Notes: generated from the letters alone by a model not told the origin. DNA of 64,000 nt from Escherichia coli (GCF_011045215.1 NZ_CP049201.1), one strand, 5' to 3'; shown: positions 530 to 43,731, numbered from the stretch's first letter. Translations and numbers: made by a program.

Positions 530-705
530 CGGATGCGATTTATATCGCATAAGAGTGCAGTACTCATGCCGGATGCGGCATGAGTACCATATCCTTCCTG
601 AAAATCGCGCAAATTCTATATATTGCAGAGATCATGTAGGCCTGATAAGCGAAGCGCATCAGGCTATATTGCAAAAAAAGCCACGGTATAAACCGTGGCA
701 AAATC
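530..705. repeat. cluster of REP-like palindromes and a terminal hairpin
   Basis: palindromes ACTCATGCCGGATGCGGCATGAGT, GCCTGATAAGCGAAGCGCATCAGGC and GCCACGGTATAAACCGTGGC in a convergent intergenic region. Confidence 0.5.
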
Positions 706-741
706 CAACATAGCTAAAAATAATCAGGCGAGTGGTATGAC

Positions 742-5828: not shown

Positions 5829-5837
5829 GGGGTTCCC

Positions 5838-7097
5838 ATGTTTACATCAGTGGCGCAAGCCAATGCTGCGGTTATCGAACAAATTCGTCGCGCTCGTCCA
5901 CACTGGCTGGATGTGCAACCGGCTTCTTCACTTATCAGCGAACTAAACGAGGGCAAAACACTGCTTCACGCCGGGCCGCCAATGCGCTGGCAGGAGATGA
6001 CCGGACCCATGAAAGGGGCGTGCGTGGGCGCATGTCTGTTCGAAGGTTGGGCGAAAGATGAAGCGCAGGCGCTGGCAATACTGGAGCAGGGGGAAGTGAA
6101 CTTCATTCCTTGTCACCATGTGAATGCCGTCGGGCCAATGGGCGGTATTACTTCTGCCAGTATGCCGATGCTGGTGGTCGAGAACGTGACCGACGGCAAC
6201 CGGGCGTACTGCAACCTCAACGAAGGTATCGGCAAAGTGATGCGTTTTGGCGCTTACGGCGAAGATGTCCTGACTCGCCATCGCTGGATGCGCGATGTGT
6301 TAATGCCAGTATTAAGCGCGGCGCTGGGGCGCATGGAGCGCGGTATCGATCTTACCGCGATGATGGCGCAGGGCATTACCATGGGCGATGAGTTCCATCA
6401 ACGCAATATTGCTTCCTCAGCACTGTTAATGCGTGCGCTGGCCCCACAAATTGCTCGCCTCGATCATGATAAACAGCACATCGCGGAAGTGATGGATTTC
6501 CTCAGCGTGACCGATCAGTTCTTCCTCAACCTCGCGATGGCTTACTGCAAGGCGGCGATGGATGCTGGCGCGATGATCCGCGCAGGCAGCATCGTCACGG
6601 CAATGACCCGCAACGGCAATATGTTCGGGATTCGGGTAAGCGGGCTGGGCGAACGCTGGTTTACTGCGCCTGTAAACACTCCGCAAGGTCTGTTTTTCAC
6701 CGGCTTCTCGCAGGAGCAGGCGAACCCGGATATGGGCGATAGCGCGATTACCGAAACCTTTGGTATCGGAGGTGCGGCAATGATCGCAGCGCCTGGCGTA
6801 ACGCGCTTTGTCGGTGCGGGTGGCATGGAAGCGGCCAGGGCGGTATCTGAAGAGATGGCGGAAATTTACCTTGAACGCAATATGCAGTTGCAGATCCCAA
6901 GCTGGGATTTCCAGGGCGCGTGCCTGGGGCTGGATATTCGTCGCGTGGTAGAAACCGGCATTACGCCACTCATCAATACCGGTATCGCCCATAAAGAGGC
7001 GGGGATCGGGCAGATTGGCGCAGGCACTGTGCGGGCACCGCTGGCGTGTTTTGAACAGGCGCTGGAAGCACTGGCTGAAAGCATGGGGATTGGTTGA
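5838..7097 (+). CDS. ylbE: DUF1116 protein YlbE, intact 419-aa form
   Basis: single uninterrupted ORF. Confidence 0.8.
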
Positions 7098-7107
7098 GGA
7101 ACGCGCA

Positions 7108-7923
7108 ATGACGATCATCCATCCTCTGCTTGCCAGTAGTAGCGCACCGAATTATCGCCAGTCCTGGCGGTTAGCGGGAGTGTGGCGGCGGGCGATTAAC
7201 CTGATGACGGAAAGCGGCGAACTGTTAACGCTGCATCGTCAGGGTAGTGGTTTCGGCCCCGGAGGATGGGTGCTTCGCCGTGCGCAATTCGATGCGTTAT
7301 GCGGTGGATTATGCGGCAATGAACGACCACAGGTTGTGGCTCAAGGGATTCGCCTCGGGCGTTTCACGGTTAAACAGCCACAGCGTTATTGTTTGCTGCG
7401 TATTACGCCGCCTGCGCATCCTCAACCACTTGCAGCTGCATGGATGCAACGCGCGGAGGAAACCGGGCTTTTCGGGCCACTGGCGTTGGCGGCAAGCGAT
7501 CCGCTGCCTGCTGAGTTACGCCAGTTTCGTCACTGTTTTCAGGCCGCGCTCAATGGCGTTAAGACCGACTGGCGGCACTGGCTGGGTAAAGGCCCCGGAT
7601 TAACGCCGAGTCATGATGACACGCTGAGCGGAATGCTGCTGGCGGCCTGGTATTATGGCGCTTTAGATGCGCGCTCCGGTCGTCCGTTTTTTGCCTGTTC
7701 CGACAATCTGCAACTCGTTACCACAGCGGTGAGCGTCAGTTATTTACGTTATGCCGCGCAAGGATATTTCGCCTCGCCACTCCTGCACTTTGTTCATGCT
7801 CTGAGTTGCCCGAAACGTACCGCTGTTGCGATTGATTCGCTGCTGGCGCTGGGGCATACGTCAGGGGCAGATACGCTGCTGGGGTTTTGGCTTGGCCAAC
7901 AATTATTACAAGGAAAACCATGA
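7108..7923 (+). CDS. ylbF: YlbF, conserved protein of the fdrA-ylbE-ylbF-ybcF cluster
   Basis: start at ATG 7108 preceded by GAGGA; 271 aa; stop overlaps the next start. Confidence 0.8.
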
Positions 7924-8813
7924 AAACACTGGTTGTAGCTCTTGGGGGCAACGCCTTACTCCAGCGCGGTGAGGCGCTGACGGCAGAAAATCAATATCGC
8001 AATATCGCCAGTGCTGTACCCGCGCTGGCGCGCCTGGCCCGTTCTTATCGGCTGGCGATTGTTCACGGCAACGGGCCGCAGGTGGGGCTGCTGGCATTGC
8101 AGAATCTGGCGTGGAAAGAGGTAGAACCGTATCCGCTGGATGTGCTGGTGGCAGAAAGTCAGGGGATGATTGGCTATATGCTGGCGCAGAGTTTGAGCGC
8201 ACAGCCGCAGATGCCGCCCGTGACGACGGTGCTGACGCGCATTGAGGTTTCGCCTGATGATCCGGCGTTTTTGCAGCCAGAGAAATTTATTGGTCCGGTT
8301 TATCAGCCAGAAGAACAAGAGGCACTGGAAGCGGCTTACGGCTGGCAGATGAAACGTGATGGTAAATATTTGCGCCGGGTGGTGGCGTCTCCGCAACCGC
8401 GTAAAATTCTCGACAGCGAAGCCATCGAGTTGTTGCTCAAAGAGGGGCATGTGGTGATTTGCAGTGGCGGCGGCGGTGTGCCTGTGACGGAAGATGGGGC
8501 AGGGAGTGAAGCGGTGATTGATAAAGATCTCGCTGCTGCGTTGCTCGCTGAGCAGATTAACGCCGATGGGCTGGTGATCCTCACTGATGCTGATGCGGTA
8601 TATGAAAACTGGGGAACGCCGCAGCAACGCGCCATTCGCCATGCCACACCGGATGAGTTAGCGCCATTTGCCAAAGCCGATGGTTCGATGGGGCCGAAGG
8701 TAACGGCGGTGAGTGGTTATGTCAGAAGCCGTGGTAAACCCGCGTGGATTGGGGCGTTATCGCGAATTGAAGAGACGCTGGCGGGCGAAGCGGGGACCTG
8801 TATTTCGCTGTAG
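7920..8813 (+). CDS. ybcF: carbamate kinase-like protein
   Basis: 297 aa from ATG 7920 (ATGA overlap with ylbF); amino-acid kinase fold motifs. Confidence 0.85.
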
Positions 8814-8951: not shown

Positions 8952-10019
8952 TTAACTGAACTTACTCTGTGCCCACATCACGCCGCTGGCATACTCCGGC
9001 GGCAGCAGCGGGATTAAGGCTTCCAGCGTCGCGGACAGACGCGATGTGTCGCTGTCGGTCAAATTCAGATGCCCCACTTTACGGCCCGGACGGACTTCTT
9101 TGTCGTACCAGTGCAGATGCACCAGCGGCAGTTTCAGCCAGTCATAATTCACATCGCTACCAATCAGATTGATCATCACCGACGGATTATTCACCACTGG
9201 TTGCGGTAACGGCAGATCGGTAATCGCCCGCAGATGTAGCTCAAACTGGCTGATGCTGGCACCGTTTTGTGTCCAGTGACCGCTGTTATGCACACGCGGA
9301 GCCAGTTCGTTGATCAGCAGACCTTGCGGGGTGACAAAACACTCCATCGCCATCACGCCCACATAGCCCAGCTCCTGCATAATCGCCGAAAGCATCTCTT
9401 CGGCTTGCGCTTGCTGCTGTGCATTGGCCTGCGGGAAAGCGACGCTGGTGCGCAAAATACCGTCCTGATGCAGGTTATGCGTCAGCGGATAAAACACGGT
9501 GCTGCCATCAAAGCCGCGCGCGCCAACCAGCGACACTTCACCAGAGAAGTTTATGCCCTGCTCGACTATACATTCGCCGTAGCATTCAGCCGGTAACTGT
9601 TCGGTTTCATCGGCACGTAAACGCCATTGACCGCGTCCGTCATAGCCACCAGTGCGACGCTTAACAATCGCCAGCTCACCTAAACGATCAAACACCGCAG
9701 GCCACTCGCTGCGTTCGGCAAGTAACTGCCACGGTGCAGTCGGCAGGTGGAGCTTATCGAAAAGCTGCTTCTGAGTCAGACGGTCAGCAATAATCGGGAA
9801 CACATCGCGGTTCACAAAGGCCGGATGGCGCGCCAGCTCGCGGGTTAATGCGGTTTCCGGCCAGCGTTCTATCTCAGCGGTAATCACGCTTTGTTGAAAA
9901 GGCACCGCCGCCGGTTCAGCGTCCAGCCCGACTGGCCAGACAGCAATGCCTAACGGTTCGCCTGCCTGACGCAGCATACGGCCTAACTGCCCGTTACCGA
10001 GGACGCAAACCTGTTTCAT
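8952..10019 (-). CDS. purK: N5-carboxyaminoimidazole ribonucleotide synthase
   Basis: 355-aa ORF, ATP-grasp protein, followed by purE. Confidence 0.9.
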
Positions 10020-10525
10020 GCCGCACCTCGCGGGTCCGGGTTTTCCAGTACTTCGTCGGTCTGGGCTTTGCGCCAGTCATTCAGACGCTGGTGCAGTTCT
10101 TTATCATGAGTCGCAAGAATTTGTGCTGCCAGTAACGCCGCGTTTGCCGCGCCAGCTTTACCAATCGCCAGCGTACCCACCGGAATGCCGCGCGGCATTT
10201 GTACGATAGAATAGAGGCTATCGACACCGCTCAGTGCGGCGCTCTGTACTGGCACGCCCAGCACCGGCACCAGCGTTTTGGCGGCAATCATACCTGGCAG
10301 GTGCGCCGCGCCGCCTGCGCCCGCAATAATCACCTGATAACCGTTCTCTTCGGCGCTTTCGGCGAAGCTGAACAGTTTATCGGGGGTGCGGTGAGCAGAA
10401 ACCACTTCAACGTGGTGCGGGACATTCAGGATTTCGAAGATTTCGGCGGCGAACTGCATGGTAGCCCAGTCGCTTTTGGACCCCATCACGATGGCGACAC
10501 GCGCCGGATTATTGCGGGAAGACAT
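10016..10525 (-). CDS. purE: N5-CAIR mutase
   Basis: start at [10 protein letters not shown]..., 169 aa; stop overlaps purK start. Confidence 0.9.
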
Positions 10526-10641
10526 GCGTCTTAAAACTCCTGTGGTGCACAACTCTCGGCTTTAGAGGGCACAGAGAATAGCACGGAAAGAGAGCAAGGA
10601 AAACGGTTGCGTGGCTGTGAAATCAGCAAAGTTGTGGGTAT

Positions 10642-11364
10642 TTAAAACGGAAAATGAATCAGTTCAACGTCATCCGCCGTGACTTTCACCATCGAACCTT
10701 CCGTATGCCAGGCACCCAGTACCACGCGAAAAGCAGGTTGCTGGTTGGCGATAAGTTCATGTACCGCCGGGCGATGGGTATGCCCGTGGATCAGCCATTG
10801 CACCTGATGTTTTTCCATCGCACTGACCACCGCGTTTTGGTTAACGTCCATGATCGCCAGCGATTTACTGCTGTTGGCTTCTTTACTGTTCGCGCGCATT
10901 CGCGCGGCAATGCGTTTGCGCACAAACAACGGCAGGGCGAGGAATAGCGTTTGCAGCCAGGGTTTGTGGACTTTGGCGCGAAAAGCCTGATAACCCGCGT
11001 CATCGGTGCACAGCATGTCGCCATGCATAATCAACACCCGACGACCATAAAGTTCGAGCACCTTTTCTTCCGGCAATAACGTCATGCCGCTTTCACGGGC
11101 AAAGCGTTTGCCGAGCAGAAAATCACGGTTGCCATGAATGAAATAACAGGGAACGCCGGAATCGGACACCGCTTTGATCGCTGCCGCCATCTGGCGATGG
11201 AGTGGGTTGGGATCGTCGTCGCCAATCCACGCTTCAAACAGATCGCCAAGAATATACAGCGCGTCGGCCTTGCGGGCTTCTCCCGCTAAAAAACGCAGAA
11301 AACCGGCGGTGATCGCCGGTTCTTCCACGCAGAGATGAAGATCTGCAATAAAGAGTGTCGCCAC
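10642..11364 (-). CDS. lpxH: UDP-2,3-diacylglucosamine hydrolase
   Basis: 240-aa calcineurin-like phosphoesterase, recognised translation. Confidence 0.9.
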
Positions 11365-11366
11365 GA

Positions 11367-11861
11367 TTACTCGCTAACGGTCACGCTTTCAATGATAACG
11401 TCTTCTTTTGGCACGTCCTGGTGCATACCGCTACGACCGGTTGCAACACCTTTGATTTTGTCTACCACGTCCATGCCTTCAACCACTTCAGCAAATACGC
11501 AGTAGCCCCAACCTTGCAGGCTTTCGCCGGAGAAGTTCAGGAAGTCGTTATCAACCACGTTGATGAAGAACTGTGCAGTTGCAGAGTGCGGAGCCTGAGT
11601 ACGGGCCATTGCCAGCGTACCACGGGTATTTTTCAGGCCGTTATTGGCTTCGTTTTTGATCGGTTCTTTGGTGGCTTTTTGTTTCATGCCCGGTTCAAAA
11701 CCGCCGCCCTGAATCATAAAGCCGTTGATAACACGGTGGAAAATGGTGTTGTTGTAAAAACCTTCGCGGCAGTAGTCCAGGAAGTTTTTAACTGTTTCAG
11801 GTGCTTTATCGTCAAAAGTTTTGATGACAATATCGCCGTGATTGGTGTGGAAAGTAACCAT
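11367..11861 (-). CDS. ppiB: peptidyl-prolyl cis-trans isomerase B
   Basis: 164-aa cyclophilin. Confidence 0.9.
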
Positions 11862-12034
11862 TTTTGCATCCTGTTCCGTTTGATTGGTGCTTCAACCCGG
11901 TTCGGGTCATATATAGGGTGGTGTTATAGCATAACCGCACGATCGGATCATCACGCAATGTATGCTGATTCGCGCGGGAAATATGGGTATTATACGCAAC
12001 TCAATTACCCACACATGTCTAAACGGAATCTTCG

Positions 12035-13420
12035 ATGCTAAAAATCTTCAATACTCTGACACGCCAAAAAGAGGAATTTAAGCCTATTCACGCCGGGGAA
12101 GTCGGCATGTACGTGTGTGGAATCACCGTTTACGATCTCTGTCATATCGGTCACGGGCGTACCTTTGTTGCTTTTGACGTGGTTGCGCGCTATCTGCGTT
12201 TCCTCGGCTATAAGCTGAAGTATGTGCGCAACATTACCGATATCGACGACAAAATCATCAAACGCGCCAATGAAAATGGCGAAAGCTTTGTGGCGCTGGT
12301 GGATCGCATGATCGCCGAAATGCACAAAGATTTTGATGCGTTGAACATTCTGCGCCCGGATATGGAGCCGCGCGCGACGCACCATATCGCAGAAATTATT
12401 GAACTCACTGAACAACTGATCGCCAAAGGTCACGCTTATGTGGCGGACAACGGCGACGTGATGTTCGACGTCCCGACCGATCCGACTTATGGCGTGCTGT
12501 CGCGTCAGGATCTCGACCAGCTGCAGGCAGGCGCGCGCGTTGACGTGGTCGACGACAAACGCAACCCGATGGACTTCGTTCTGTGGAAGATGTCGAAAGA
12601 GGGCGAACCGAGCTGGCCGTCTCCGTGGGGCGCGGGCCGTCCAGGCTGGCACATTGAATGTTCGGCAATGAACTGCAAGCAGCTGGGTAACCACTTTGAT
12701 ATCCACGGCGGCGGTTCAGACCTGATGTTCCCGCACCACGAGAACGAAATCGCGCAGTCCACCTGTGCCCATGATGGTCAGTATGTGAACTACTGGATGC
12801 ACTCCGGGATGGTGATGGTTGATCGCGAGAAGATGTCCAAATCGCTGGGTAACTTCTTCACCGTGCGTGATGTGCTGAAATACTACGACGCGGAAACCGT
12901 GCGTTACTTCCTGATGTCAGGCCACTATCGCAGCCAGCTGAACTACAGCGAAGAGAACCTGAAGCAGGCGCGTGCGGCGCTGGAGCGTCTCTACACTGCG
13001 CTGCGCGGCACAGATAAAATCGTTGCGCCTGCCGGTGGCGAAGCGTTTGAAGCGCGCTTTATTGAAGCGATGGACGACGATTTCAACACCCCGGAAGCCT
13101 ATTCCGTGCTGTTTGATATGGCGCGTGAAGTAAACCGTCTGAAAGCAGAAGATATGGCAGCGGCGAATGCAATGGCATCTCACCTGCGTAAACTTTCCGC
13201 CGTATTGGGCCTGCTGGAGCAAGAACCGGAAGCGTTCCTGCAAAGCGGCGCGCAGGCAGACGACAGCGAAGTGGCTGAGATTGAAGCGTTAATTCAACAG
13301 CGTCTGGATGCCCGTAAAGCGAAAGACTGGGCGGCGGCAGATGCGGCGCGTGACCGTCTTAACGAGATGGGGATCGTGCTGGAAGATGGCCCGCAAGGGA
13401 CCACCTGGCGTCGTAAGTAA
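12035..13420 (+). CDS. cysS: cysteine--tRNA ligase
   Basis: 461 aa with HIGH and KMSKS class I motifs. Confidence 0.95.
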
Positions 13421-22163: not shown

Positions 22164-22240
22164 GCGCCCTTAGCTCAGTTGGATAGAGCAACGACCTTCT
22201 AAGTCGTGGGCCGCAGGTTCGAATCCTGCAGGGCGCGCCA
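22164..22240 (+). tRNA. argU: tRNA-Arg (anticodon UCU)
   Basis: 77-nt cloverleaf GCGCCCTTAGCTCAGTTGGATAGAGCAACGACCTTCTAAGTCGTGGGCCGCAGGTTCGAATCCTGCAGGGCGCGCCA; anticodon loop CCTTCTAAG. Confidence 0.95.
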
Positions 22241-22242
22241 TT
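22196..22242. repeat. attL core: 47-bp direct repeat (3' half of argU)
   Basis: identical to 43685-43731. Confidence 0.85.
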
Positions 22243-22255
22243 ACAATTCAATCAG

Positions 22256-23419
22256 TTACGCCTTCTTTATATCCTCCATAATTCCACAGTGGGACATATT
22301 TGGGACATTATCACCAAAAATGTCGTCTATTTTCCTTGCATGCTCTGTCAAATGATTAGGCGCAAGGTGAGCATACCTACGAACCATTTCTATGGACTCC
22401 CATCCGCCCATTTCCTGAAGCACAGATAATGGGACGCCTGACTGGATCAGCCAGCTTGCCCAGGTGTGTCTGAGGTCATGGAAACGGAAATCTTCAATTC
22501 CTGCACGACGACAAGCTGATAGCCATGATGTCTTGCTGTCGATGCGCATCTTCCTGACCGCAGGCGTTGATGTTCCATCTGCTCGCTTAGCCGCCTTGGT
22601 ATGTACAAACACCCATTTGTGATGCTTGCCTATTTGATCACGCAACACTTTACAGGCGGTATCGTTCAGCGCCACACCAATGGCGCGGTTTGATTTGCTC
22701 TCTTCTGGATTCACCCAGGCAACTCGTCGCTGCATGTCGATTTGTTGCCATTCCAGATTTATGATGTTCGACTTTCTCAGACCAGTTGCCAGCGCAAACT
22801 TGACGACAGATTTCAGTGGTTCGGGGCACTCATCAATAAGGCGTTTTGCTTCCTCCTTTTCCAGCCATCTGACTCGCTTGTTTCTGACCGCTGGTATCTT
22901 GATGACAGGCGCTTTTTCCAGCCACTTCCAGTCGCGTTCTGCAGCACGGAGAATGGCCTTTATCATGGCAAGATGCTTTGCCTTTGTCTGAGTTGATACT
23001 GGCTTTGGTTCATAAACAGGCGGTTCTTTACCTTTCCTGATGGCGGCCTGAACTTTCTGTTTCCATATTTCTTTCGTCTTTCTGTTATGCATTCTGCTTA
23101 CAGCAGAGTAAATCTTTGCCTCCGAGATATCTTTAAGCCTTATACCCTCAAAATGTTCAAGCCAGAACTCAATCCGGCTTTTATCTGAATCGAGAGATTT
23201 TTTATCAGCTTTTTCCTCAAGCCATCTTAGGCAGGCCTCTTCAAAAGTGACATCAGGTAAATCCCCTAGCTTTTCTACTCGCCAGAGTTCTGCTTTTCGC
23301 TTGTCGTGCAACTCCTGAGCTTGCCGCTTGTCCTTTGTGCCAAGAGATTCCTTAATTCGTTTCCCGCCCGGGAGCGAATACGAGGCATACCATATTTCAT
23401 TTCTGCGGAAGAGTGACAT
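22256..23419 (-). CDS. intD: prophage tyrosine integrase
   Basis: 387 aa; C-terminal R..HxxR..Y catalytic region (HDLRHTWAS ... RRYAHL); adjacent to argU. Confidence 0.9.
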
Positions 23420-23646: not shown

Positions 23647-26262
<2,616 letters not shown>

Positions 26263-32912: not shown

Positions 32913-33458
32913 ATGGAAGTCAACAAAAAGCAGCTGGCTGACATTTTCGGTGCGAGTATCCGTACCATTCAGAACTGGCAGGAACAGGGAATGCCCGTTC
33001 TGCGAGGCGGTGGCAAGGGTAATGAGGTGCTTTATGACTCTGCCGCCGTCATAAAATGGTATGCCGAAAGGGATGCTGAAATTGAGAACGAAAAGCTGCG
33101 CCGGGAGGTTGAAGAACTGCGGCAGGCCAGCGAGACAGATCTCCAGCCAGGGACTATTGAGTACGAACGCCATCGACTTACGCGTGCGCAGGCCGACGCA
33201 CAGGAGCTGAAAAATGCCAGAGACTCCGCTGAAGTGGTGGAAACCGCATTCTGTACTTTCGTGCTGTCGCGGATCGCAGGTGAAATTGCCAGTATTCTCG
33301 ACGGGATCCCCCTGTCGGTGCAGCGGCGTTTTCCGGAACTGGAAAACCGACATGTTGATTTCCTGAAACGGGATATCATCAAAGCCATGAACAAAGCAGC
33401 CGCGCTGGATGAACTGATACCGGGGTTGCTGAGTGAATATATCGAACAGTCAGGTTAA
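32913..33458 (+). CDS. nohD: terminase small subunit Nu1 homologue
   Basis: 181 aa, near-identical to remembered lambda Nu1 (MEVNKKQLADIFGASIRTIQNWQEQGMPV...). Confidence 0.9.
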   Translation: MEVNKKQLADIFGASIRTIQNWQEQGMPVLRGGGKGNEVLYDSAAVIKWYAERDAEIENEKLRREVEELRQASETDLQPGTIEYERHRLTRAQADAQELKNARDSAEVVETAFCTFVLSRIAGEIASILDGIPLSVQRRFPELENRHVDFLKRDIIKAMNKAAALDELIPGLLSEYIEQSG

Positions 33459-34324
33459 CAGGCTGCGGCATTTTGTCCGCGCCGGGCTTCGCTCACTGTT
33501 CAGGCCGGAGCCACAGACCGCCGTTGAATGGGCGGATGCCAATTACTATCTCCCAAAAGAATCCGCATACCAGGAAGGGCGCTGGGAAACACTGCCCTTT
33601 CAGAGGGCCATCATGAATGCGATGGGCAGTGACTACATCCGCGAGGTGAATGTGGTGAAGTCTGCCCGTGTTGGTTATTCCAAAATGCTGCTGGGTGTTT
33701 ATGCCTACTTCATAGAGCATAAGCAGCGCAATACCCTTATCTGGTTGCCGACGGATGGTGATGCCGAGAACTTTATGAAAACCCACGTTGAGCCGACTAT
33801 TCGTGATATTCCGTCGCTGCTGGCGCTGGCCCCGTGGTATGGCAAAAAGCACCGGGATAACACGCTCACCATGAAGCGTTTCACCAATGGGCGTGGCTTC
33901 TGGTGCCTGGGCGGTAAAGCGGCAAAAAACTACCGTGAAAAGTCAGTGGATGTGGCGGGTTATGATGAACTTGCTGCCTTTGATGAGGATATTGAACAGG
34001 AAGGCTCTCCGACGTTCCTGGGCGATAAGCGTATTGAAGGCTCGGTCTGGCCAAAGTCCATCCGTGGCTCCACGCCCAAAGTGAGAGGCACCTGCCAGAT
34101 TGAGCGTGCAGCCAGTGAATCCCCGCATTTTATGCGTTTTCATGTTGCCTGCCCGCATTGCGGGGAGGAGCAGTATCTTAAATTTGGCGACAAAGAGACG
34201 CCGTTTGGCCTCAAATGGACGCCGGATGACCCCTCCAGCGTGTTTTATCTCTGCGAGCATAATGCCTGCGTCATCCGCCAGCAGGAGCTGGACTTTACTG
34301 ATGCCCGTTATATCTGCGAAAAGA
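33433..34324 (+). pseudogene. terminase large subunit (lambda A) N-terminal ~297 codons, truncated
   Basis: matches lambda A up to ...YICEKTGIW, then diverges into junk; junction near 34324. Confidence 0.8.
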
Positions 34325-34364
34325 CCGGGATCTGGAGGGGAATACCAACATCGCCGGTGTCACG

Positions 34365-34823
34365 GTGGTGTTCCGGGCAGGTGAACAGGAGCAGACACCG
34401 CCGGAGGGATTTGAATCCTCCGGATCCGAGACGGTGCTGGGTACGGAAGTGAAATACGACACGCCGATCACCCGGACCATCACGTCTGCAAACATCGACC
34501 GTCTGCGCTTTACCTTCGGTGTGCAGGCACTGGTGGAAACCACCTCAAAGGGGGACCGGAATCCATCGGAAGTCCGCCTGCTGGTTCAGATACAACGTAA
34601 CGGTGGCTGGGTGACGGAAAAAGACATCACCATTAAGGGCAAAACCACCTCGCAGTATCTGACCTCGGTGGTGGTGGGTAACCTGCCGCCGCGCCCGTTT
34701 AATATCCGGATGCGCAGGATGACGCCGGACAGCACCACAGACCAGCTGCAGAACAAAACGCTCTGGTCGTCATACACCGAAATCATCGATGTGAAACAGT
34801 GCTACCTTCTGCCCGTAAGGTGA
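34365..34823 (+). pseudogene. internal fragment of tail tip protein J
   Basis: translation ...GTEVKYDTPITRTITSANIDRLRFTFGVQALVETTSKGDRNPSEV... matches the middle of lambda J. Confidence 0.75.
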
Positions 34824-36004
34824 ATGGTAAGGCGCTTTCAGCGGATATAACACTGACGCCGAAAGATATTGGTACGCTTAACTCAACAACAATGTCATTC
34901 AGCGGTGGTGCTGGTTGGTTCAAATTAGCAACGGTAACCATGCCACAGGCGAGTTCTGTTGTTTCAATTACGTTGATTGGTGGAGCTGGATTTAACGTGG
35001 GGTCACCTCAACAGGCAGGTATATCTGAACTTGTTTTGCGTGCAGGTAATGGTAATCCGAAGGGGATTACTGGTGCTTTATGGCAGCGCACATCGACAGG
35101 GTTTACAAATTTTGCCTGGGTCAATACATCTGGTGATACTTACGATATTTACGTTGCAATCGGAAATTATGCGACTGGTGTAAATATTCAATGGGATTAT
35201 ACCAGTAATGCCAGCGTGACGATTCATACGTCACCAGCATATTCTGCTAATAAGCCGGAAGGGTTAACGGACGGTACAGTTTATTCACTCTATACGCCAT
35301 CAGAACAGTTTTATCCGCCTGGCGCACCAATCCCGTGGCCATCAGATACCGTTCCGTCTGGCTATGCCCTGATGCAGGGGCAGACTTTTGACAAATCTGC
35401 CTACCCGAAACTTGCAGTCGCTTATCCGTCAGGCGTGATCCCTGATATGCGTGGCTGGACGATTAAGGGCAAGCCCGCCAGTGGTCGTGCCGTATTGTCT
35501 CAGGAACAGGACGGCATTAAATCGCATACCCACAGCGCCAGCGCATCCAGTACGGATTTGGGTACGAAAACCACATCGTCGTTTGATTACGGAACCAAAT
35601 CCACGAATAACACCGGGGCGCATACCCATAGTATTAGCGGGACTGCAAATAGTGCCGGTGCGCACCAACACAAGAGTTCCGGTGCATTTGGTGGCACGAA
35701 CACGAGCATTTTTCCTAATGGTTATACTGCGATTTCAAATCCAAGCGCGGGGATTATGAGCACAACAAGCGGTACTGGCCAGACTCGTAATGCAGGGAAG
35801 ACATCATCAGATGGTGCTCATACCCACTCACTGTCCGGCACTGCTGCAAGCGCAGGTGCACACGCACATACTGTCGGTATTGGTGCTCATACGCACTCCG
35901 TTGCGATTGGTTCACATGGACACACCATCACCGTTAACGCTGCTGGTAACGCGGAAAACACCGTCAAAAACATCGCATTTAACTATATTGTGAGGCTTGC
36001 ATAA
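34799..36004 (+). CDS. side tail fibre protein, C-terminal portion (Stf-like)
   Basis: 401 aa; Gly/Ser/Thr/His-rich repeats (GAHTHS, GAHQHK, GAHAHT) typical of tail-fibre C-termini; followed by tfa. Confidence 0.6.
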
Positions 36005-36585
36005 TGGCATTCAGAATGAGTGAACAACCACGGACCATAAAAATTTATAATCTGCTGGCCGGAACTAATGAATTTATTGGTGAAGGTGACGCATATATTC
36101 CACCTCATACAGGTCTGCCAGCAAACAGTACCGATATTGCACCGCCAGATATTCCGGCAGGCTTCGTGGCTGTTTTCAACAGTGATGAGGCATCGTGGCA
36201 TCTTGTTGAAGACCATCGGGGTAAAACGGTTTATGACGTGGCTTCCGGCGACGCGTTATTTATTTCTGAACTCGGCTTATTACCGGAAAATGTCACCTGG
36301 TTATCCCCGGAAGGGGAGTTTCAGAAGTGGAACGGCACAGCCTGGGTGAAAGATGCAGAAGCAGAAAAACTGTTCCGGATCCGGGAGGCGGAAGAAACAA
36401 AAAACAACCTGATGCAGGTAGCCAGTGAGCATATTGCGCCACTTCAGGATGCTGTAGATCTGGAAATCGCAACGGAGGAAGAAAACTCGTTGCTGGAAGC
36501 CTGGAAGAAGTATCGGGTGTTGCTGAACCGTGTTGATACATCAACTGCACCTGATATTGAGTGGCCTGTAATACCAGAAGTTTAA
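36004..36585 (+). CDS. tail fibre assembly protein (Tfa)
   Basis: 193 aa; stop/start overlap with stf. Confidence 0.75.
36424..36548. repeat. direct repeat copy 1 (3' end of tfa)
   Basis: about 90 percent identical to 40254-40380. Confidence 0.7.
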
Positions 36586-36590
36586 AATAA

Positions 36591-36616
36591 AAGCCCGCTT
36601 AAAATATCGCGGGCTT
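36591..36616. terminator. bidirectional hairpin terminator between tfa and the catalase operon
   Basis: AAGCCCGC-TTAAAATAT-CGCGGGCTT. Confidence 0.55.
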
Positions 36617-36704
36617 CGAAATATAAATGTATTTTCAGAGGCTAGAGCTTAGGATATCTCAGCGGCAATTAACTTATGAGGGATAGCTAAATACCAGAAG
36701 ATAA

Positions 36705-37595
36705 TTAGTTTTTACTATTTATCTTTGTTTGTGGTTCTCCTTCAGCAAGCTCAGCGCCAGTGACAGGATTGATGTCTTCATGGGATTTCAACCTTGTTGC
36801 CATAGCTTTTATCATAGCTTCTTGCTTGGTCGAAAGATTTATCGAGGCCTTCCCATCCCCACCGTCAACCGCTGGAACTGGATCGGAAATATAGTCAAAG
36901 TTTTCATCACTGTTCCAACTACCTCTGACGTCTTCACCTTCTGACATGTTGTAATATACGTTTTTGTATTTCTCAATTGGTGGTAATTTTCCTGGTGGAA
37001 AGGTGTTGCGAATTGAATGTAATGCTTTTTCAAATGAAAGCATGTGTGCTGCTTCCCTGGTCATTAAAAATGCCAGAGTGTCTTTTACTCCAGGATCATC
37101 AGTAACATTAATGAGACGTTCGTAAATGATCTTTGCCCGAGCTTCAGCTGCAATATTTGAACGAAGATCGGCCGTGACTTCGCCAATAGTATCAACATAA
37201 GCTGCAGTCCAGGGTACTCCAGCTGAATTAGTTAATGCTGGGCCTCCTCCGTAGAGGAGAGAAGTTATATGGCTGTCATTGCCATTTTGAGTTAAGGAAC
37301 GGTAAAGCTCAGCTTCATTCTCAGTTCCTTCAGCAAGTGCTCCTTTTGCACCTTTGTTGAGCATACCAACAAGAGAACCAATAATTTCGAGATGACTTAG
37401 TTCTTCTGTTGCTATGTCCATCAGCATATCCCTTCGGCCTGCATCTTCATCACTTAAGCCTTGAGTGAAGTATCGGCATGCTGCTGCAAGCTCACCCTGT
37501 GGCCCGCCGAATTGTTCTAAAAGTAGATTAGCCAAGCCTGGGTTTGGCTCACTTACACGTACTGTATATTGAAGTTTTTTCACGTGTCTAAACAT
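36705..37595 (-). CDS. manganese (non-haem) catalase, KatN-like
   Basis: 296 aa ferritin-like di-metal protein; last gene of the yciG/yciF/yciE-like operon, as in the Salmonella yciGFE-katN arrangement. Confidence 0.7.
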   Translation of the reverse strand: MFRHVKKLQYTVRVSEPNPGLANLLLEQFGGPQGELAAACRYFTQGLSDEDAGRRDMLMDIATEELSHLEIIGSLVGMLNKGAKGALAEGTENEAELYRSLTQNGNDSHITSLLYGGGPALTNSAGVPWTAAYVDTIGEVTADLRSNIAAEARAKIIYERLINVTDDPGVKDTLAFLMTREAAHMLSFEKALHSIRNTFPPGKLPPIEKYKNVYYNMSEGEDVRGSWNSDENFDYISDPVPAVDGGDGKASINLSTKQEAMIKAMATRLKSHEDINPVTGAELAEGEPQTKINSKN

Positions 37596-37613
37596 AATGC
37601 CTCCTCAAAAGAA

Positions 37614-38120
37614 TTATTTTTTGGCTTCAACTCCATCAATTTCAGATCTGACCATGAATTGCTCAGTGGTGTCAGGAATATGGTTAAGAAGCCATTCAGC
37701 CATTTGTTTTTCTTCATTAAGAATTGCTTCAATAATGGGTACTGAAGCTGTATCACCCGCATTTTTGGCTGCTGCGAGAAGAGATGTGTAGCACGCAATT
37801 TCAAATTGTTCGAAAACATAGCCACTGATCGAACCTTTGACAATTTCATCAGATGGAAAAATTCCACCAATGGATTGCCCAAACGCGGCCATTTTACTCA
37901 TAGAGTCTTTAATGACAGAGCGCGAAATATTATTACGATCAAGTATGCTTTCAAGCTGTGAAAGCTGGTTCTTTGTTTCGCTAATGTGCTGCTCAATTCT
38001 GGAACGTAACTCTGGATAGTTTTCTATCCGGCTGGCCATAGACTCAAGCATTTTTTCAGCTTGTTTCTCCATCGCATGTGCATCACGAAGCCAGTCATGG
38101 TAATGTTCAATTCTATTCAT
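37614..38120 (-). CDS. DUF892 ferritin-like stress protein, YciE-like
   Basis: 168 aa; recognised as a YciE paralogue. Confidence 0.7.
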   Translation of the reverse strand: MNRIEHYHDWLRDAHAMEKQAEKMLESMASRIENYPELRSRIEQHISETKNQLSQLESILDRNNISRSVIKDSMSKMAAFGQSIGGIFPSDEIVKGSISGYVFEQFEIACYTSLLAAAKNAGDTASVPIIEAILNEEKQMAEWLLNHIPDTTEQFMVRSEIDGVEAKK

Positions 38121-38156
38121 AATCTGTTTATCCTAAAAGAAATTGAAGTCTATAGT

Positions 38157-38663
38157 TCAGGAGTTATCCTGAGCTTTTTTATTAACGTTATTAAATGCCA
38201 GGTCTGTTAATTTGACATCAGTAGCTTTTTCCTCTTCCAGTGTTTCTTTCAGGAGTTTAGCCGCTTTTTTATATCCTAATTGCTCAGCGAGTGTTACCAA
38301 AGTGCCATAACTGGCAATTTCATAGTGCTCTACTTTTTGTGCTGCAGCAATCAATGCAGCATCACGTACTTCATTTTTATCAGTGCTTTCAATTACCTCA
38401 TTCGCCTCTTCGATAAGTCCTTCCATTGCGGCACACTTAATTCTTTTCAATTTAAGACCATCTTCAGAATCAACAATCTGATCGATGCGTTCAATTTGAC
38501 CATGTGTCTCATCAAGATGTGACTGAAAAGCAGCGGTTAATTTATCACTATATGCAGAGCGACTAAGTTTAGACAGTGCCTTTGTTAGTTGTTTCTCAGC
38601 GCTGTATGTATCCGATAATAAGTGGATGAAGATATCTTCAACAGATTTAATTTGCATAATCAC
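38157..38663 (-). CDS. DUF892 ferritin-like stress protein, YciF-like
   Basis: 168 aa; recognised as a YciF paralogue. Confidence 0.7.
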   Translation of the reverse strand: MIMQIKSVEDIFIHLLSDTYSAEKQLTKALSKLSRSAYSDKLTAAFQSHLDETHGQIERIDQIVDSEDGLKLKRIKCAAMEGLIEEANEVIESTDKNEVRDAALIAAAQKVEHYEIASYGTLVTLAEQLGYKKAAKLLKETLEEEKATDVKLTDLAFNNVNKKAQDNS

Positions 38664-38735
38664 TCCAGAGTTTTCACTGCGAGCCCGTAGGCTCGCAGTT
38701 AGCTTCAGTTATTCACGAATGTAGGGGATGATAAA

Positions 38736-38918
38736 TTAAGAGTCAGATTTACGGCCGCCACCATGGCTATTCTGACCACCTTTTTTCCCTGCTTCTGATG
38801 CTCTTTGTGGATCGTTTTTAAAATTACCGCCACTATGTTGGCCGCCTTTACGACCAGCGTCAGAAGCTTTTTGTCGATCTTCAGCGAAATTACCTGCACC
38901 GCCACGATGTTCGGTCAT
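38736..38918 (-). CDS. KGG-repeat general stress protein, YciG-like
   Basis: 60 aa with repeated KGG / RKGGQ motifs. Confidence 0.65.
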   Translation of the reverse strand: MTEHRGGAGNFAEDRQKASDAGRKGGQHSGGNFKNDPQRASEAGKKGGQNSHGGGRKSDS

Positions 38919-39422
38919 ATCATTTCTCCTCTGATTTTCAAATTGTAAATAACATGTGCCTTGTCAGCACCCAATTAACTCTAGTAACAAATAAGAAAGT
39001 GTCAAATAACAGATTGGTATGCGCATTTTGATGTGAGAAATAATAATTGTAAAAATGTGCGCTCAGTGAGTATAATCTATTGATATCTTAGTGATTAACG
39101 GAAAATTTAGGTTGTAACTCAAAAGATTAATAAACCTAAATTTACATTTCTATATTATTTGGTGTGCCTGTTGTTGTTTTTCTCAATAAGAATACTCTGT
39201 AAAATAATTCAATCGTAAGATGGTTGTTATTCATATTTTTTTGAGATAGTTCCTAATAGGGTCCATCCCTTGAATAAATAATTGTTTTAAAATTTCGTCT
39301 AAAGAACTAATTACAAGAAAATTTATATAGTCCAAGGAATCATGATTGTACTTAACCATAAGATTTGAGCGTAAAAATTAATGCGCAGCACGTCGTATGC
39401 AAGAACGTGCTGCGGTTGGATG

Positions 39423-40091
39423 CTATTTTTTCCCTGAAGCGGAAAACATTACTACAGTACCTTGAACCTTGGTTTTAACATTCTCGAAATGCTCTGAGAG
39501 TATATGTGTTAAGCCTTCTTCGGAATCTCTTGTGTTTGAAAAGATGCCTTTCTGATTGTAAATGCGCATCAGTTTTTGACCGAAGCGATTGTGCACAATT
39601 CCATCGCCAAGAATTGTGGCTCCGTATAGAGTTCCATCGCCAGTTAAGGCCTGCGCCGCATTGCGTATTACACAGCTTTTTGTAGATATATTTCCAGGCA
39701 GGCAGTGAAGAAGGTAAAACATGGAAATGGAATCAAATTGACCATGTAACGCCGCGGGATAAGGTTCAAAAACATCATGGCTAATTTTATGTTTAATTTT
39801 TGATTCCCCAGCCCTTGTAGATGCCGCGTTCAGGCTAGCTTCGTTCAAATCCATTAAAGATATCAGACTACTCTCAGGTACGTGAGTAAGGTAAAACCCA
39901 GTTCCAACACCAATATCCAGATGGTTGTTACCTAAATGTTCCAGAAAGTGTGGAAGAAGGTGTTCCTTTGTAGGACATCCCCATGCAAGCCGATTTGATA
40001 CTCCCAAAACCCACCAGTCATAAAGCTTTAGGGTAAGTGGTGTGTAAATTTTAGCCCCATCATCTGTGTTTTTTTTCATTAATTTCACCAT
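39423..40091 (-). CDS. class I SAM-dependent methyltransferase
   Basis: 222 aa; motif I LDIGVGTG; hairpin terminator just downstream. Confidence 0.65.
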   Translation of the reverse strand: MVKLMKKNTDDGAKIYTPLTLKLYDWWVLGVSNRLAWGCPTKEHLLPHFLEHLGNNHLDIGVGTGFYLTHVPESSLISLMDLNEASLNAASTRAGESKIKHKISHDVFEPYPAALHGQFDSISMFYLLHCLPGNISTKSCVIRNAAQALTGDGTLYGATILGDGIVHNRFGQKLMRIYNQKGIFSNTRDSEEGLTHILSEHFENVKTKVQGTVVMFSASGKK

Positions 40092-40147
40092 GTTATAGTT
40101 TTATTTGTGAATTAAATCAATTATGGCAATGAATTACAAGGGGTTAA

Positions 40148-40453
40148 ATGCTGCCGCAGCATGGCGATATTGAAATAGCCTGGTATGCTTCAATACAGCA
40201 GGAGCCGAATGGCTGGAAGACCGTCACCACACAGTTCTACATCCAGGAATTCAGTGAGTATATTGCGCCACTGCAGGATGCTGTAGATCTGGAAATCGCA
40301 ACGGAGGAAGAAAGATCGTTGCTGGAGGCATGGAATAAATATCGGGTATTGTTGAATCGTGTTGATACATCAGTAGCTCTGGGTATGAAGCTGTTTGTAA
40401 CTCATGTTACAGTAACAGCCATTACTATCTCGAAGGTGCAAAATGTATATTGA
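40148..40453 (+). pseudogene. tail fibre assembly (tfa) 3' remnant
   Basis: only the C-terminal Tfa segment ([34 protein letters not shown]) is recognisable. Confidence 0.6.
40254..40380. repeat. direct repeat copy 2 (tfa 3' end)
   Basis: pairs with 36424-36548. Confidence 0.7.
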
Positions 40454-40636
40454 TTTGATATTTTATAAATTTACTTCGAATCTGGCACGTCAACTTTTGA
40501 TTAAAGTAATATCAGTTTTCGGCGAAAAAAGGACCGTGTACATGAGACGATTTCATACAAGAATAACAAAAATATGAATATGCTCCCAATGCAATATATG
40601 TTTTGCATTGGGAGCAAATAGCGGAATATTTTGAAA

Positions 40637-42121
40637 TTATTGTATTTCTGCTTCAGAATTTCCTGGGCAGTATATATTTTCTATTTTTTGTGGAGTGATC
40701 AGGTGATGTACAACTGCTTTATCTACACATAAATTAACTCCGGTGAGAGCTAATGTATGCCCATCACCATTTATTGTTAGTAACGGGCTGGAAAATTTCT
40801 CTGCCATCTTACGGGCATTAATCCAGGGCGTTGTTGGATCGTATTTGTGTGCTACAAACAGTAAACCAGAGGGCAGAACAGTATTTTTCAGGCGAGTTTT
40901 GTTCAGGTCGCTATGTATTGGCCATAATTCACAAAAATCAGGTGAATCGGAACGTCCATTGTCAAAGTTAATAGCCGGGAAGGCATTCGCAAGAGCCTCT
41001 TTTCGGAATTTTCGCTCTTCTGGTGTTAATTGCTCATCCCCCTGATCTACACAAAGGATTACCCCCGAAGCATCACTTGACTCTTCTGAGGCTATCGGAG
41101 CACTGAGCGCAGTTTCAATTTCATTACTGACAATCCCCTGAGAGAACTGGCGTATGGCAGTTGCAAGGGTTGGCCATGATGAACGCCATAGCAGAAGGTC
41201 TGTTGTTAATGATATGAGTTCATCTGAAGATATATTTTCTCCCTTACTGTCTAATAAAGGTTTGTGATGTAATTTTGATAATAGCTCATGGAACTGAGTT
41301 ATTGCCTTATCTCTGTCTGAAGAAAGCGGGCAACTTTTTGTACGCGCACACCAGGATGCAAAGCGATCAAACGTTTCCTGATAACTCTGTGCCTGTTTGA
41401 GTTGCCATGTGAAGTTGTTCTCCAGGTCATCGATATCGACGACTCCATCAAGAACGATAGATCTTACGTTGTAGGGAAAACGTTCTGCATATAAGGCTGC
41501 AATTTGAGTTCCATACGAATACGCCACGGCTGTCAGTTGTTTATCCCCCAAGGCTTGCCTAATACGATCAATATCGTATACAGCCTCGTTAGAGCCGATA
41601 TGGCGAATGACTTCGGCTCCGGTATTATGGATACAGGCATTAATTTTATTTAATACTTGTTGCTTTTCGGTTATGTTTTCCTGAGTCTCTGTATCTGATT
41701 GTCGGCAGTTTATTGTCGGAGTGGACTGTCCGACGCCTCGAGGATCAAATCCAATAATATCCCATGACTCACGAAGATTTGTGACTGGCCAGTCAAAGTT
41801 AATATAAGGATTTATGCCTGGCAACCCGGGACCACCACTTATTATCAGGATACTTCCTTTATGCTTGCTTTTTGCCGGCAATTTTGTCAACGCTAGTTTG
41901 ACTTGTGATTTTTTTTCATAAGAAGCATCTCCGCCTGTGTCTGTATATTTTAATGGAACAGACAAATAACCACATAGTAAGTCAGGAGACGGTTTTTCCT
42001 CACCAAACCAGTGGTTGAATTGACTGGCCATACAGGATTGCCACTGTATCTGCTGGGCAGATACGGTTACTGGTAGAAGTAACGTTAAAACAACTTTGAA
42101 ATGAGTAATTATTTTTCGCAT
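40637..42121 (-). CDS. secreted alpha/beta-hydrolase (peptidase S33-like)
   Basis: 494 aa; N-terminal signal peptide; GGPG and nucleophile-elbow-like AYSYG motifs. Confidence 0.6.
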   Translation of the reverse strand: MRKIITHFKVVLTLLLPVTVSAQQIQWQSCMASQFNHWFGEEKPSPDLLCGYLSVPLKYTDTGGDASYEKKSQVKLALTKLPAKSKHKGSILIISGGPGLPGINPYINFDWPVTNLRESWDIIGFDPRGVGQSTPTINCRQSDTETQENITEKQQVLNKINACIHNTGAEVIRHIGSNEAVYDIDRIRQALGDKQLTAVAYSYGTQIAALYAERFPYNVRSIVLDGVVDIDDLENNFTWQLKQAQSYQETFDRFASWCARTKSCPLSSDRDKAITQFHELLSKLHHKPLLDSKGENISSDELISLTTDLLLWRSSWPTLATAIRQFSQGIVSNEIETALSAPIASEESSDASGVILCVDQGDEQLTPEERKFRKEALANAFPAINFDNGRSDSPDFCELWPIHSDLNKTRLKNTVLPSGLLFVAHKYDPTTPWINARKMAEKFSSPLLTINGDGHTLALTGVNLCVDKAVVHHLITPQKIENIYCPGNSEAEIQ

Positions 42122-42307: not shown

Positions 42308-43261
42308 TTAAAAGGTGTACTTAAGACCAGCAGTAGTGATGAAGTTATAGTTTTCTATGCCTGCACCATTTTTGCTGTAGTCTGAAGTGTTATCATTGTG
42401 ATCATAAAGTGAAGTATTACCTTTTTTATTCGTAACCCGATTCCATGCGCCTTCAACATAAACTTTTGCGTTAGGTGTTACGTAATAACCTGCATTGACT
42501 GCAACAGAATAGTAATTTTGGTCTTTGACCTTACTGCGATAAGTGATTCTTTTTCCCGGGTCATAGTGTTCATCGTTATCAGATGATTCCACCCAGCCGC
42601 TGTATTTAAATGTGCCACCGAGTTCAAAATCTTCATAACGATAACTTCCAGTCAAGCCAATGTAGGGCATTTTAAAACGTTGTTTGTAGCCGATTGCTCT
42701 TTCTCCATTCGGGAAGGAGCCGATATCATCTCTGAATCCCTCCTCAGAACTGTAGATATAGGAACCACCTCTGGCTGTAAAGCTATAACGGCTTTCCTGA
42801 TATCCGGCCATGAGTCCCAGGCGGTAATTGGGTTCGTTGAGGAGCCAGCCTTTGATATTCAGATCAAATTCGTTGGCATAATTGAGTTGTGTATCAGGGT
42901 GCTTACTTTCATCTGTCCAGGTTCCGGGGTTACTGGAATCCATCCAGTCCTGATCGACCATATTGCCACCCCGGCTGCCGAGAGTAGTCCAGCCCGCAGC
43001 CCCAATAGATATCTGGGGCATCAAATCCCAATTAATTGCACCTTTAATAATTGCAGCGTTATTGAATTTCCAGTCGAGTTGACTGACTTTTCGGCCTCCT
43101 TCTTCAGCTAGATAAACGCGCTCTTTTGTTTTTCCGCTCAGAGTTCCAAGACTAATGTCCACATTTATGTTGTCAGGAGTAAACGATATAGTCTCGGTAG
43201 AAGCAAAAGAGCTGATCGCAATAGGGGTTGTCAGGACTATTCCCAGAAGTTTCGCCCGCAT
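42308..43261 (-). CDS. ompT: outer-membrane protease (omptin)
   Basis: 317 aa, recognised as OmpT. Confidence 0.95.
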   Translation of the reverse strand: MRAKLLGIVLTTPIAISSFASTETISFTPDNINVDISLGTLSGKTKERVYLAEEGGRKVSQLDWKFNNAAIIKGAINWDLMPQISIGAAGWTTLGSRGGNMVDQDWMDSSNPGTWTDESKHPDTQLNYANEFDLNIKGWLLNEPNYRLGLMAGYQESRYSFTARGGSYIYSSEEGFRDDIGSFPNGERAIGYKQRFKMPYIGLTGSYRYEDFELGGTFKYSGWVESSDNDEHYDPGKRITYRSKVKDQNYYSVAVNAGYYVTPNAKVYVEGAWNRVTNKKGNTSLYDHNDNTSDYSKNGAGIENYNFITTAGLKYTF

Positions 43262-43684: not shown

Positions 43685-43731
43685 CTTCTAAGTCGTGGGC
43701 CGCAGGTTCGAATCCTGCAGGGCGCGCCATT
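43685..43731. repeat. attR core: 47-bp copy of the argU 3' half
   Basis: identical to 22196-22242; no 5' half of a tRNA is present. Confidence 0.85.

Follow-up and report, generated by a model that had tools for sequence, protein, structure and literature searches.

Two tail-fibre-assembly gene segments and a katN cargo slot at the right end of a DLP12/CP-933X-type Escherichia coli prophage: evidence for a layered accessory region

Does the DNA between two copies of a tail-fibre-assembly gene segment form one cargo island, or does it combine elements with different histories? The question is raised by a 64,000-nucleotide stretch of Escherichia coli DNA (GCF_011045215.1, NZ_CP049201.1; hereafter the window, numbered from its first nucleotide), in which the 3' part of tfa recurs downstream of the intact gene. 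A preliminary description of the window had placed a cargo island at 36424-40380, bracketed by the repeats and acquired or exchanged by recombination between them. Comparison with relatives indicates that the interval, located at the right end of a prophage, is very probably an accessory region built in layers and not a single island. The older layer would comprise the intact tfa, the ybcY methyltransferase unit, the tfaX open reading frame (ORF), a hydrolase gene or appY, ompT, and the right attachment site attR. The second layer, the yciG-yciF-yciE-katN set, would have entered as a moron in a slot between the last tfa codons and the hairpin behind ybcY. The region as such is already known, namely as the right-end accessory region of DLP12/CP-933X-type prophages. 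The features are listed in Table 1.

The two repeats have the same orientation and are offset by 3829 nucleotides (nt). In a blastn comparison of the window against itself (E = 2e-42 for this pair) they align without gaps over 121 nt, of which 110 are identical (90.9%), with a longest perfect run of 40 nt at 36445-36484; the about 125 bp, ~90% identity, and 3.8-kb spacing given in the preliminary description are thus borne out. The same comparison yielded these two direct copies only, with no third or inverted tfa copy in the 64-kb window. The gene content described earlier, four stress genes and a methyltransferase dependent on S-adenosylmethionine (SAM), none of them phage structural, agrees with the Pfam and KGG matches, and all five genes lie on the minus strand. 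No integrase, transposase, or invertase was found among the ORFs of 36424-40380.

The proposed extent of the island, on the other hand, did not survive comparison with relatives, where the boundaries are different ones. In 99_0288, the K-12-like strain LIM, and phage PhiR29_1, which carry no katN cassette, homology to the window runs to 36567 and resumes at 39377, with about 29-33 nt in place of the 2809 nt of the window; the slot of K-12 is likewise empty. The left joint, 36567/36568, is six codons before the tfa stop and 24 nt past the left repeat, and the match to lambda tfa (95.3% DNA identity) ends at this same joint, at 36568. The right joint, 39376/39377, is just ahead of the ybcY hairpin and 875 nt before the right repeat. 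In phage PhiR68_2 a Pin-type invertase gene and ynaE occupy the slot, their joints being 36566 and 39384. The empty, katN, and pin-ynaE variants share joints at 36567/8 and 39377-39384, and in the empty, pin-ynaE, and AREA_492 variants homology starts or stops at 39377-39419. The presence/absence polymorphism thus lies off the repeats, and K-12, phages, and about 70% of genomes have ybcY-tfaX but lack the cassette.

Two further observations concern the slot itself. The AREA_492 locus (5001-7952) has the cassette with a tfa relic and a ybcY-type hairpin, but then switches to unrelated DNA (with DUF6387, an H-NS-family gene, and repL) at a joint 4 nt past the position of the ybcY stop. RefSeq annotates across the empty slot a 45-codon ORF, called "hypothetical protein" or "nucleocapsid protein" (4756-4893 of locus L002; 4412-4549 of locus L003), which extends over the end of tfa, the hairpin, and the 3' end of ybcY and is probably an annotation artefact.

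The cassette comprises a KGG gene, two DUF892 genes (E = 1.4e-50 and 3.5e-54), and a Mn catalase gene, co-oriented in the order of yciGFE-katN operons. Its GC content is 38.8%, and 28% in the region upstream of the operon, versus 47% in tfa and 49% in stf. Tfa and ybcY are about 55 nt apart in relatives without the cassette versus 2.8 kb in the window. A sigma-70-like site at 39005-38978 (TTGACA, 16-nt spacer, TAGAGT) is a predicted promoter, and the predicted katN terminator folds at -16 kcal/mol (z = -4.2), with none of 200 shuffled sequences folding as well. The two joints, the low GC content, the predicted terminator, and the promoter-like site together give the anatomy of a moron, and the cassette appears to be a self-contained promoter-to-terminator unit in a defined cargo slot. 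Morons and post-tfa accessory regions are well known in lambdoid phages, for instance the b region of lambda, pinR-ynaE in Rac, and pinQ-ydfK in Qin. The cassette resembles these as an autonomous unit of lower GC content between phage-adjacent genes, right after tfa, and we see no essential difference.

The distribution of the two layers differs as well. Of 5426 complete E. coli genomes, 381 have the katN cassette, whereas 3797 (about 70%) have the 1001-nt ybcY-tfaX block at no less than 80% coverage. In 346 of the 381 cassette genomes, 80% or more of a 4374-nt tfa-cassette-ybcY-tfaX query is matched in one place, so that ybcY-tfaX lies on the right of the cassette. The MG1655 annotation of "cryptic prophage DLP12" already contains tfaD (b0561), ybcY (b0562, annotated as a pseudogene), tfaX (b0563), appY, and ompT, and the tfa-ybcY-tfaX arrangement is also present in the sequenced, viable phages PhiR29_1, 2G7b, and PhiR68_2. 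The block is found in other backbones too: next to a different tail-fibre module in 2G7b and JNEC-KY175, and in a trpA-adjacent prophage in GN05056. The tfa-ybcY-tfaX bracket thus seems to be old, widespread, and already annotated. The ybcY unit has a promoter-like site and a terminator hairpin of its own, both predicted.

These data bear directly on the single-island alternative, according to which the whole 3.8-kb interval entered or was exchanged through the tfa copies, for example as a circle re-inserting at the tfa 3' end. Relics of the tfa 3' end do flank ybcY even where no intact tfa is present (2G7b, JNEC-KY175, and GN05056), and the repeats do recombine in nature, as described below. 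The katN operon and ybcY-tfaX, however, differ in boundaries and in frequency (381 versus 3797 genomes), and the mismatches between the repeats are biased to synonymous positions and fixed by position across genomes. In addition, the upstream tfa of 2G7b, JNEC-KY175, and GN05056 is reduced to a 3' relic of 84-126 nt outside any ORF, beginning at 36460, 36469, and about 36491. Because of their varied starts and non-ORF position, these left relics look like scars of illegitimate joints and not like homologous insertions. We therefore regard a single island as quite improbable.

What, then, is the downstream copy? Only residues about 27-77 of tfaX match real Tfa proteins, and its N-terminal 26 residues occur in no full-length Tfa. 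The K-12-type relic extends to the natural tfa end (…DTSVAPDIEWLIQP*), and hence once closed a complete tfa. In relatives the tfaX ORF is disrupted by a TGA codon (K-12 type), by another stop (JNEC-KY175), by a 7-nt deletion (phage 2G7b), and by an ISEc8 insertion (EDL933). We also considered tfaX as a conserved small gene, as a Shine-Dalgarno-like sequence and an ATG are present; this was rejected, as relatives show the ORF disrupted independently in these four ways. TfaX is best read as the decaying 3' relic of a second, different tfa allele.

The left repeat encodes residues that are common to the Tfa/U/G proteins of lambda, P2, Mu, P1, and APSE. Eight of the 11 mismatches between the repeats fall on codon position 3, with three amino acid changes in 40 codons (binomial P = 0.009), and thus the copies appear to have diverged as functional genes, most of the divergence having accumulated, as judged from these patterns, while both were working. 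Across genomes the copies group by position and not by genome: upstream copies from other genomes are 93-99% identical to the left copy of the window, and hydrolase-type downstream copies are 99-100% identical to the right one. This position-wise clustering argues that no homogenisation took place. The repeats would accordingly represent two tfa alleles, that is, paralogous coding remnants.

The same measurements speak to an in-situ duplication, in which the insertion of ybcY or of cargo copied about 145 nt of the target tfa, with later drift. The K-12-type copies indeed span an identical part of tfa, 36423-36565, at the end of which the slot joint is located. The two copies differ by 9-12%, though, versus 0-3% among orthologous copies across genomes, and a bias of 8 in 11 differences to third codon positions is unexpected for a pair of which one member was a pseudogene since its origin. 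No insertion mechanism is known to yield a target duplication of about 145 nt. We consider this duplication very improbable.

Under the layered reading, two phage right arms would have been joined in the old layer, the C-terminal segment of the second tfa being left as a scar. The content behind this scar varies. The hydrolase-type elements (the window, A15, 99_0288, EDL933, PhiR29_1, and 2G7b) lose homology to the appY-type relatives compared (K-12, JNEC-KY175, and PhiR68_2, which have appY at the position of the hydrolase gene) at 40377, a joint 5 nt past the right repeat. Alternative cargo thus appears to start right after the conserved tfa segment at both copies. Of the cargo exchange envisaged earlier, the part that stands is the end of the conserved tfa segment as a recurrent mosaic joint, as in exchange between phages; acquisition of the interval as a unit does not.

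Recombination between tfa and tfaX can be traced in relatives. The tfa segments, sharing 121-143 nt with the 40-nt perfect run, are still substrates for RecA- or Red-type recombination. For the appY-type element, the junction expected from a deletion gave a single full-length match in nine of the 5426 complete E. coli genomes, which have a full-length tfa adjoining appY-type sequence and lack ybcY. Five of the nine were examined by site-by-site comparison, and in all five the prophage reads stf-tfa-appY-ompT, with no ybcY. Each hybrid tfa combines an upstream allele with the K-12-type tfaX allele and its downstream DNA, with 0-1 mismatch over 300 nt. In WGI31CT and EM18-18-42 the left-hand parent is K-12 tfaD-like, the crossover lies within 36445-36485 (the 40-nt perfect run), and the hybrid carries the TGA stop of tfaX. 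In the O169:H41 strain Res13-Lact-PER13-34 the parent is also K-12 tfaD-like, with the crossover at 36511-36520 and an intact hybrid ORF. In MIN6 and ES7 the parent is PhiR68_2-like, the crossover is at 36538-36540, and the hybrid ORF is intact. The three switch points and the two parents on the left speak for three or more independent events of homologous recombination. A similar process has been demonstrated experimentally for lambda, which recombines with Rac and Qin within stf-tfa homology, even when diverged, mainly by Red-beta (De Paepe et al. 2014, PMC3945230).

Could the nine tfa-appY genomes instead preserve an ancestral state that preceded the arrival of ybcY, the repeats never having recombined? 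The natural end of the K-12-type tfaX does imply that the position directly upstream of appY was at one time occupied by a full tfa. Against this, the examined genomes fall into three mosaics, each passing from a known upstream allele to the tfaX allele at a different switch point, and two of the hybrids carry the TGA stop of the K-12 tfaX pseudogene. The ancestral-state explanation is very improbable in our judgement.

In the window strain, recombination of this kind would remove katN, yciEFG, and ybcY, a deletion that is mechanistically possible, as the same 40-nt run is present. Of the earlier suggestions, recombination between the copies is supported by the tfa-tfaX hybrids of appY-type relatives, and a deletion product of the katN/hydrolase type was not found in the genomes and phage records searched. 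The suggested inversion is precluded by the orientation of the repeats, since direct repeats cannot invert the segment between them.

This orientation also bears on the possibility that the locus is what remains of an invertible tail-fibre segment (Pin/Gin/Cin type), with the second tfa as an alternative chaperone gene. A Pin-type invertase occupies the same slot in PhiR68_2, Turner, and Kati, and GN05056 carries a true inverted tfa pair beside the ybcY block. The copies of the window are direct, however, and neither an inverted tfa copy nor an invertase gene between the repeats is present there. A search with a gix-type crossover sequence gave no match. An invertible-segment origin is therefore scarcely credible.

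A more speculative reading, which we put forward tentatively and think unlikely, is that the tfa 3' segment (121-143 nt) acts as a portable homology anchor, the content from tfa to a tfaX relic being a cassette that can be excised and re-inserted and is moved between lambdoid prophages by phage recombinases of the Red/Rad52 type. If true, it would explain why about 70% of E. coli genomes have a block of tfa relic, slot, ybcY, and tfaX, why this block occurs in several tail-fibre backbones that are unrelated, and why hybrids have several crossover points.

Several points weigh against the layered reading. It is only the anatomy seen today that suggests an illegitimate joint between two right arms, and no intermediate was found. 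The katN/hydrolase variant of the window has no deletion product: a junction of tfa-unique sequence, repeat, and tfaX downstream DNA of the hydrolase type was found in none of the 5426 genomes and none of 50,697 phage records. Exchange of the tfa of an incoming phage with a resident tfaX could give the same junctions as an intramolecular deletion, and the detail of the junctions comes from only five of the nine tfa-appY genomes. The promoter and terminator of the cassette are predictions. Finally, no donor of the cassette was found: the closest KatN from a species representative, that of Kosakonia, has 87% identity, and the non-coding flanks of the cassette match none of 80 chromosomal species loci.

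Some features of the possible source can nevertheless be described. The cassette is 74% identical in DNA to the chromosomal yciGFE of K-12, with 80-93% protein identity, and appears to be a diverged paralogue of it. All katN operons found among species representatives are chromosomal, and neither tfa nor ybcY was found near them in the 52 loci examined. The cassette is absent from all deposited phage genomes, where matches (75-79%) were obtained only to chromosomal yciE beside prophages integrated at ompW. It is possible that the cassette originated by imprecise excision of an ompW-site prophage in a katN-carrying species. As separate observations, phage records show lambdoid prophages integrated at ompW adjoining chromosomal yciE, and the GN05056 locus has an ompW fragment directly before trpA (6467-6700), yciEFG being absent from its 9-kb stretch.

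The closest known systems include two prophages and a chromosomal operon. DLP12 of K-12 shares with the window the argU site, the order and orientation of tfa, ybcY, and tfaX, the joints at the tfa tail and the hairpin, and ompT as the last gene before attR. It differs in that tfaD forms a fusion with a terminase fragment, nothing fills the slot, ybcY has become a pseudogene, and appY replaces the hydrolase gene; the K-12 tfaX allele, unlike that of the window, has kept 143 nt of tfa homology and has a TGA stop. CP-933X of EDL933 has the identical order stf-tfa-katN-yciE-yciF-yciG-ybcY-tfaX-hydrolase-ompT with proteins 97-100% identical, those of the cassette (Z1921-Z1924) being 99-100% identical. 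It differs by a full-length stf and by ISEc8 at the end of the tfaX repeat (40371-40379). This element (IS66 family) occupies 9805-12247 of the EDL933 locus, with a 9-nt overlap of the flanks consistent with a target-site duplication.

The yciGFE-katN operon of Salmonella consists of the same four genes in the same order, with KatN 84% identical; it differs in being chromosomal, with a trpA-ompW position in Salmonella arizonae and diarizonae. The gene order also occurs in Enterobacter, Klebsiella, and other genera. The name KatN was given to Z1921 by Wan et al. (2017, PMC5363993), who treated z1921-z1924 as an operon with homology to yciGFE-katN of Salmonella, assigned it to the cryptic prophage CP-933X, and inferred horizontal acquisition. 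That paper (PMC5363993) reports catalase activity and type VI secretion system (T6SS)-dependent secretion for the EDL933 KatN, 99% identical to that of the window, and control of the orthologous EDL933 operon by RpoS, OxyR, and H-NS.

Table 1. Window coordinates of the tfa-tfaX interval and of the surrounding prophage features
Feature	Coordinates	Strand	Remarks
tRNA-Arg(tct) argU	22164-22240		ARAGORN
attL, 3' half of argU	22196-22242	+	47 nt, exact copy at attR
intD-type integrase ORF	22256-23419	-	follows attL; intD annotated in relatives
stf remnant	34799-36004	+	C-terminal 401 codons; truncated, fused to J fragment
tfa, intact	36004-36585	+	193 amino acids (aa); Pfam Caudo_TAP E = 3.9e-44; PHROG 105 E = 3e-99
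Left direct repeat	36423-36543	+	conserved C-terminal coding segment of tfa, residues 141-180
katN cassette	36568-39376	-	2809 nt, terminator-to-promoter unit between tfa tail and ybcY terminator
Predicted intrinsic terminator of katN operon	36581-36617	-	9-bp GC-rich stem, then UUUUAUUUU
katN, Mn catalase	36705-37595	-	296 aa; Pfam Mn_catalase E = 1.1e-86; 98.99% to EDL933 Z1921 (blastp)
yciE-like DUF892 gene	37614-38120	-	168 aa; identical to EDL933 Z1922; 88% to K-12 YciE
yciF-like DUF892 gene	38157-38663	-	99% to EDL933 Z1923; 80% to K-12 YciF
yciG-like KGG gene	38736-38918	-	60 aa, two KGG repeats; identical to EDL933 Z1924
Operon upstream region	38919-39376	-	AT-rich (GC count)
Hairpin behind ybcY	39384-39414	-	11-bp stem, just past ybcY stop codon; -18 kcal/mol, z = -3.6
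ybcY-type class I SAM-dependent methyltransferase, intact	39423-40091	-	222 aa; Pfam Methyltransf_12/25/23/11; PHROG 2132 E = 3e-154
tfaX-type ORF	40148-40453	+	101 aa; 35-codon unrelated leader, tfa 3' relic, unrelated tail; PHROG 2341
Right direct repeat	40252-40372	+	tfaX relic
Alpha/beta hydrolase	40637-42121	-	494 aa; annotated in relatives; PHROG 20134; alternative to appY
ompT	42308-43261	-	last gene inside prophage; annotated in relatives
attR	43685-43731	+	exact 47-nt copy of argU 3' half; between ompT and envY

The whole element is a cryptic, degraded lambdoid prophage of the DLP12/CP-933X type integrated at argU. It has attL and attR with an adjacent intD-type integrase gene, and its right end follows the DLP12 order tfa, ybcY (minus strand), tfaX, appY or hydrolase gene, and ompT (minus strand), as compared directly with DLP12 of MG1655 and with phages PhiR29_1, 2G7b, and PhiR68_2. 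Given the position of attR, the whole stretch from stf to ompT is inside the prophage, the hydrolase gene and ompT being cargo of the prophage, and envY lies beyond it. The genes for head, tail, and lysis have been lost. The full 2961-nt stf of strain A15 matches the window only from 34803, and as the remaining stf is truncated and fused to a J fragment, the prophage cannot make a tail fibre. Two internal deletion joints lie in about 33433-34810, one between an N-terminal fragment of terminase A and J near 34336 and the other between J and stf near 34803; the closest relatives, whose prophage is longer, match only to 34336. The early region contains an IS21-family insertion sequence, IS100 (istA/istB, about 24181-25982, plus strand, as annotated in the closest relatives), here as two overlapping ORFs of 340 and 260 aa.

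The layered organization has consequences for the use of this locus. KatN, a reported virulence-associated T6SS substrate of enterohaemorrhagic E. coli, is encoded within a cryptic prophage, in a defined slot that ordinary homologous recombination can fill, empty, or delete. Because the slot content can change, the presence of katN is no stable lineage marker. The locus also offers a natural example of 9%-diverged repeats of 121-143 nt recombining, with mapped crossover points, and implies no new biology.

For annotation and strain typing it is of value that tfaX and the matches to the RNA family IS009 (Rfam RF02111) are remnants of tail-fibre-assembly coding sequence and not independent genes. 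The IS009 match at 36347-36545 (plus strand), within which the left repeat lies, scores 227.6 bits, above the gathering threshold of 117, and the match at 40171-40374 (plus strand) scores 111.4 bits, just under it. Both correspond to the sense strand of the tfa coding sequence. This "sRNA" (small RNA) family therefore looks like a fragment of the tail-fibre-assembly gene rather than an independent RNA, and IS009 has been excluded by others as lying within genes (PMC5331693).

Two other structural matches were noted in the window. A hairpin with a 14-bp stem at 40581-40616 (minus strand), downstream of the hydrolase gene, gave a sub-threshold chance match to mir-450 and is most simply explained as a predicted terminator. 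Outside the prophage, at 601-735 (plus strand), the sRNAs ES036 (CssrF) and STnc480 are matched at the Rfam gathering threshold.

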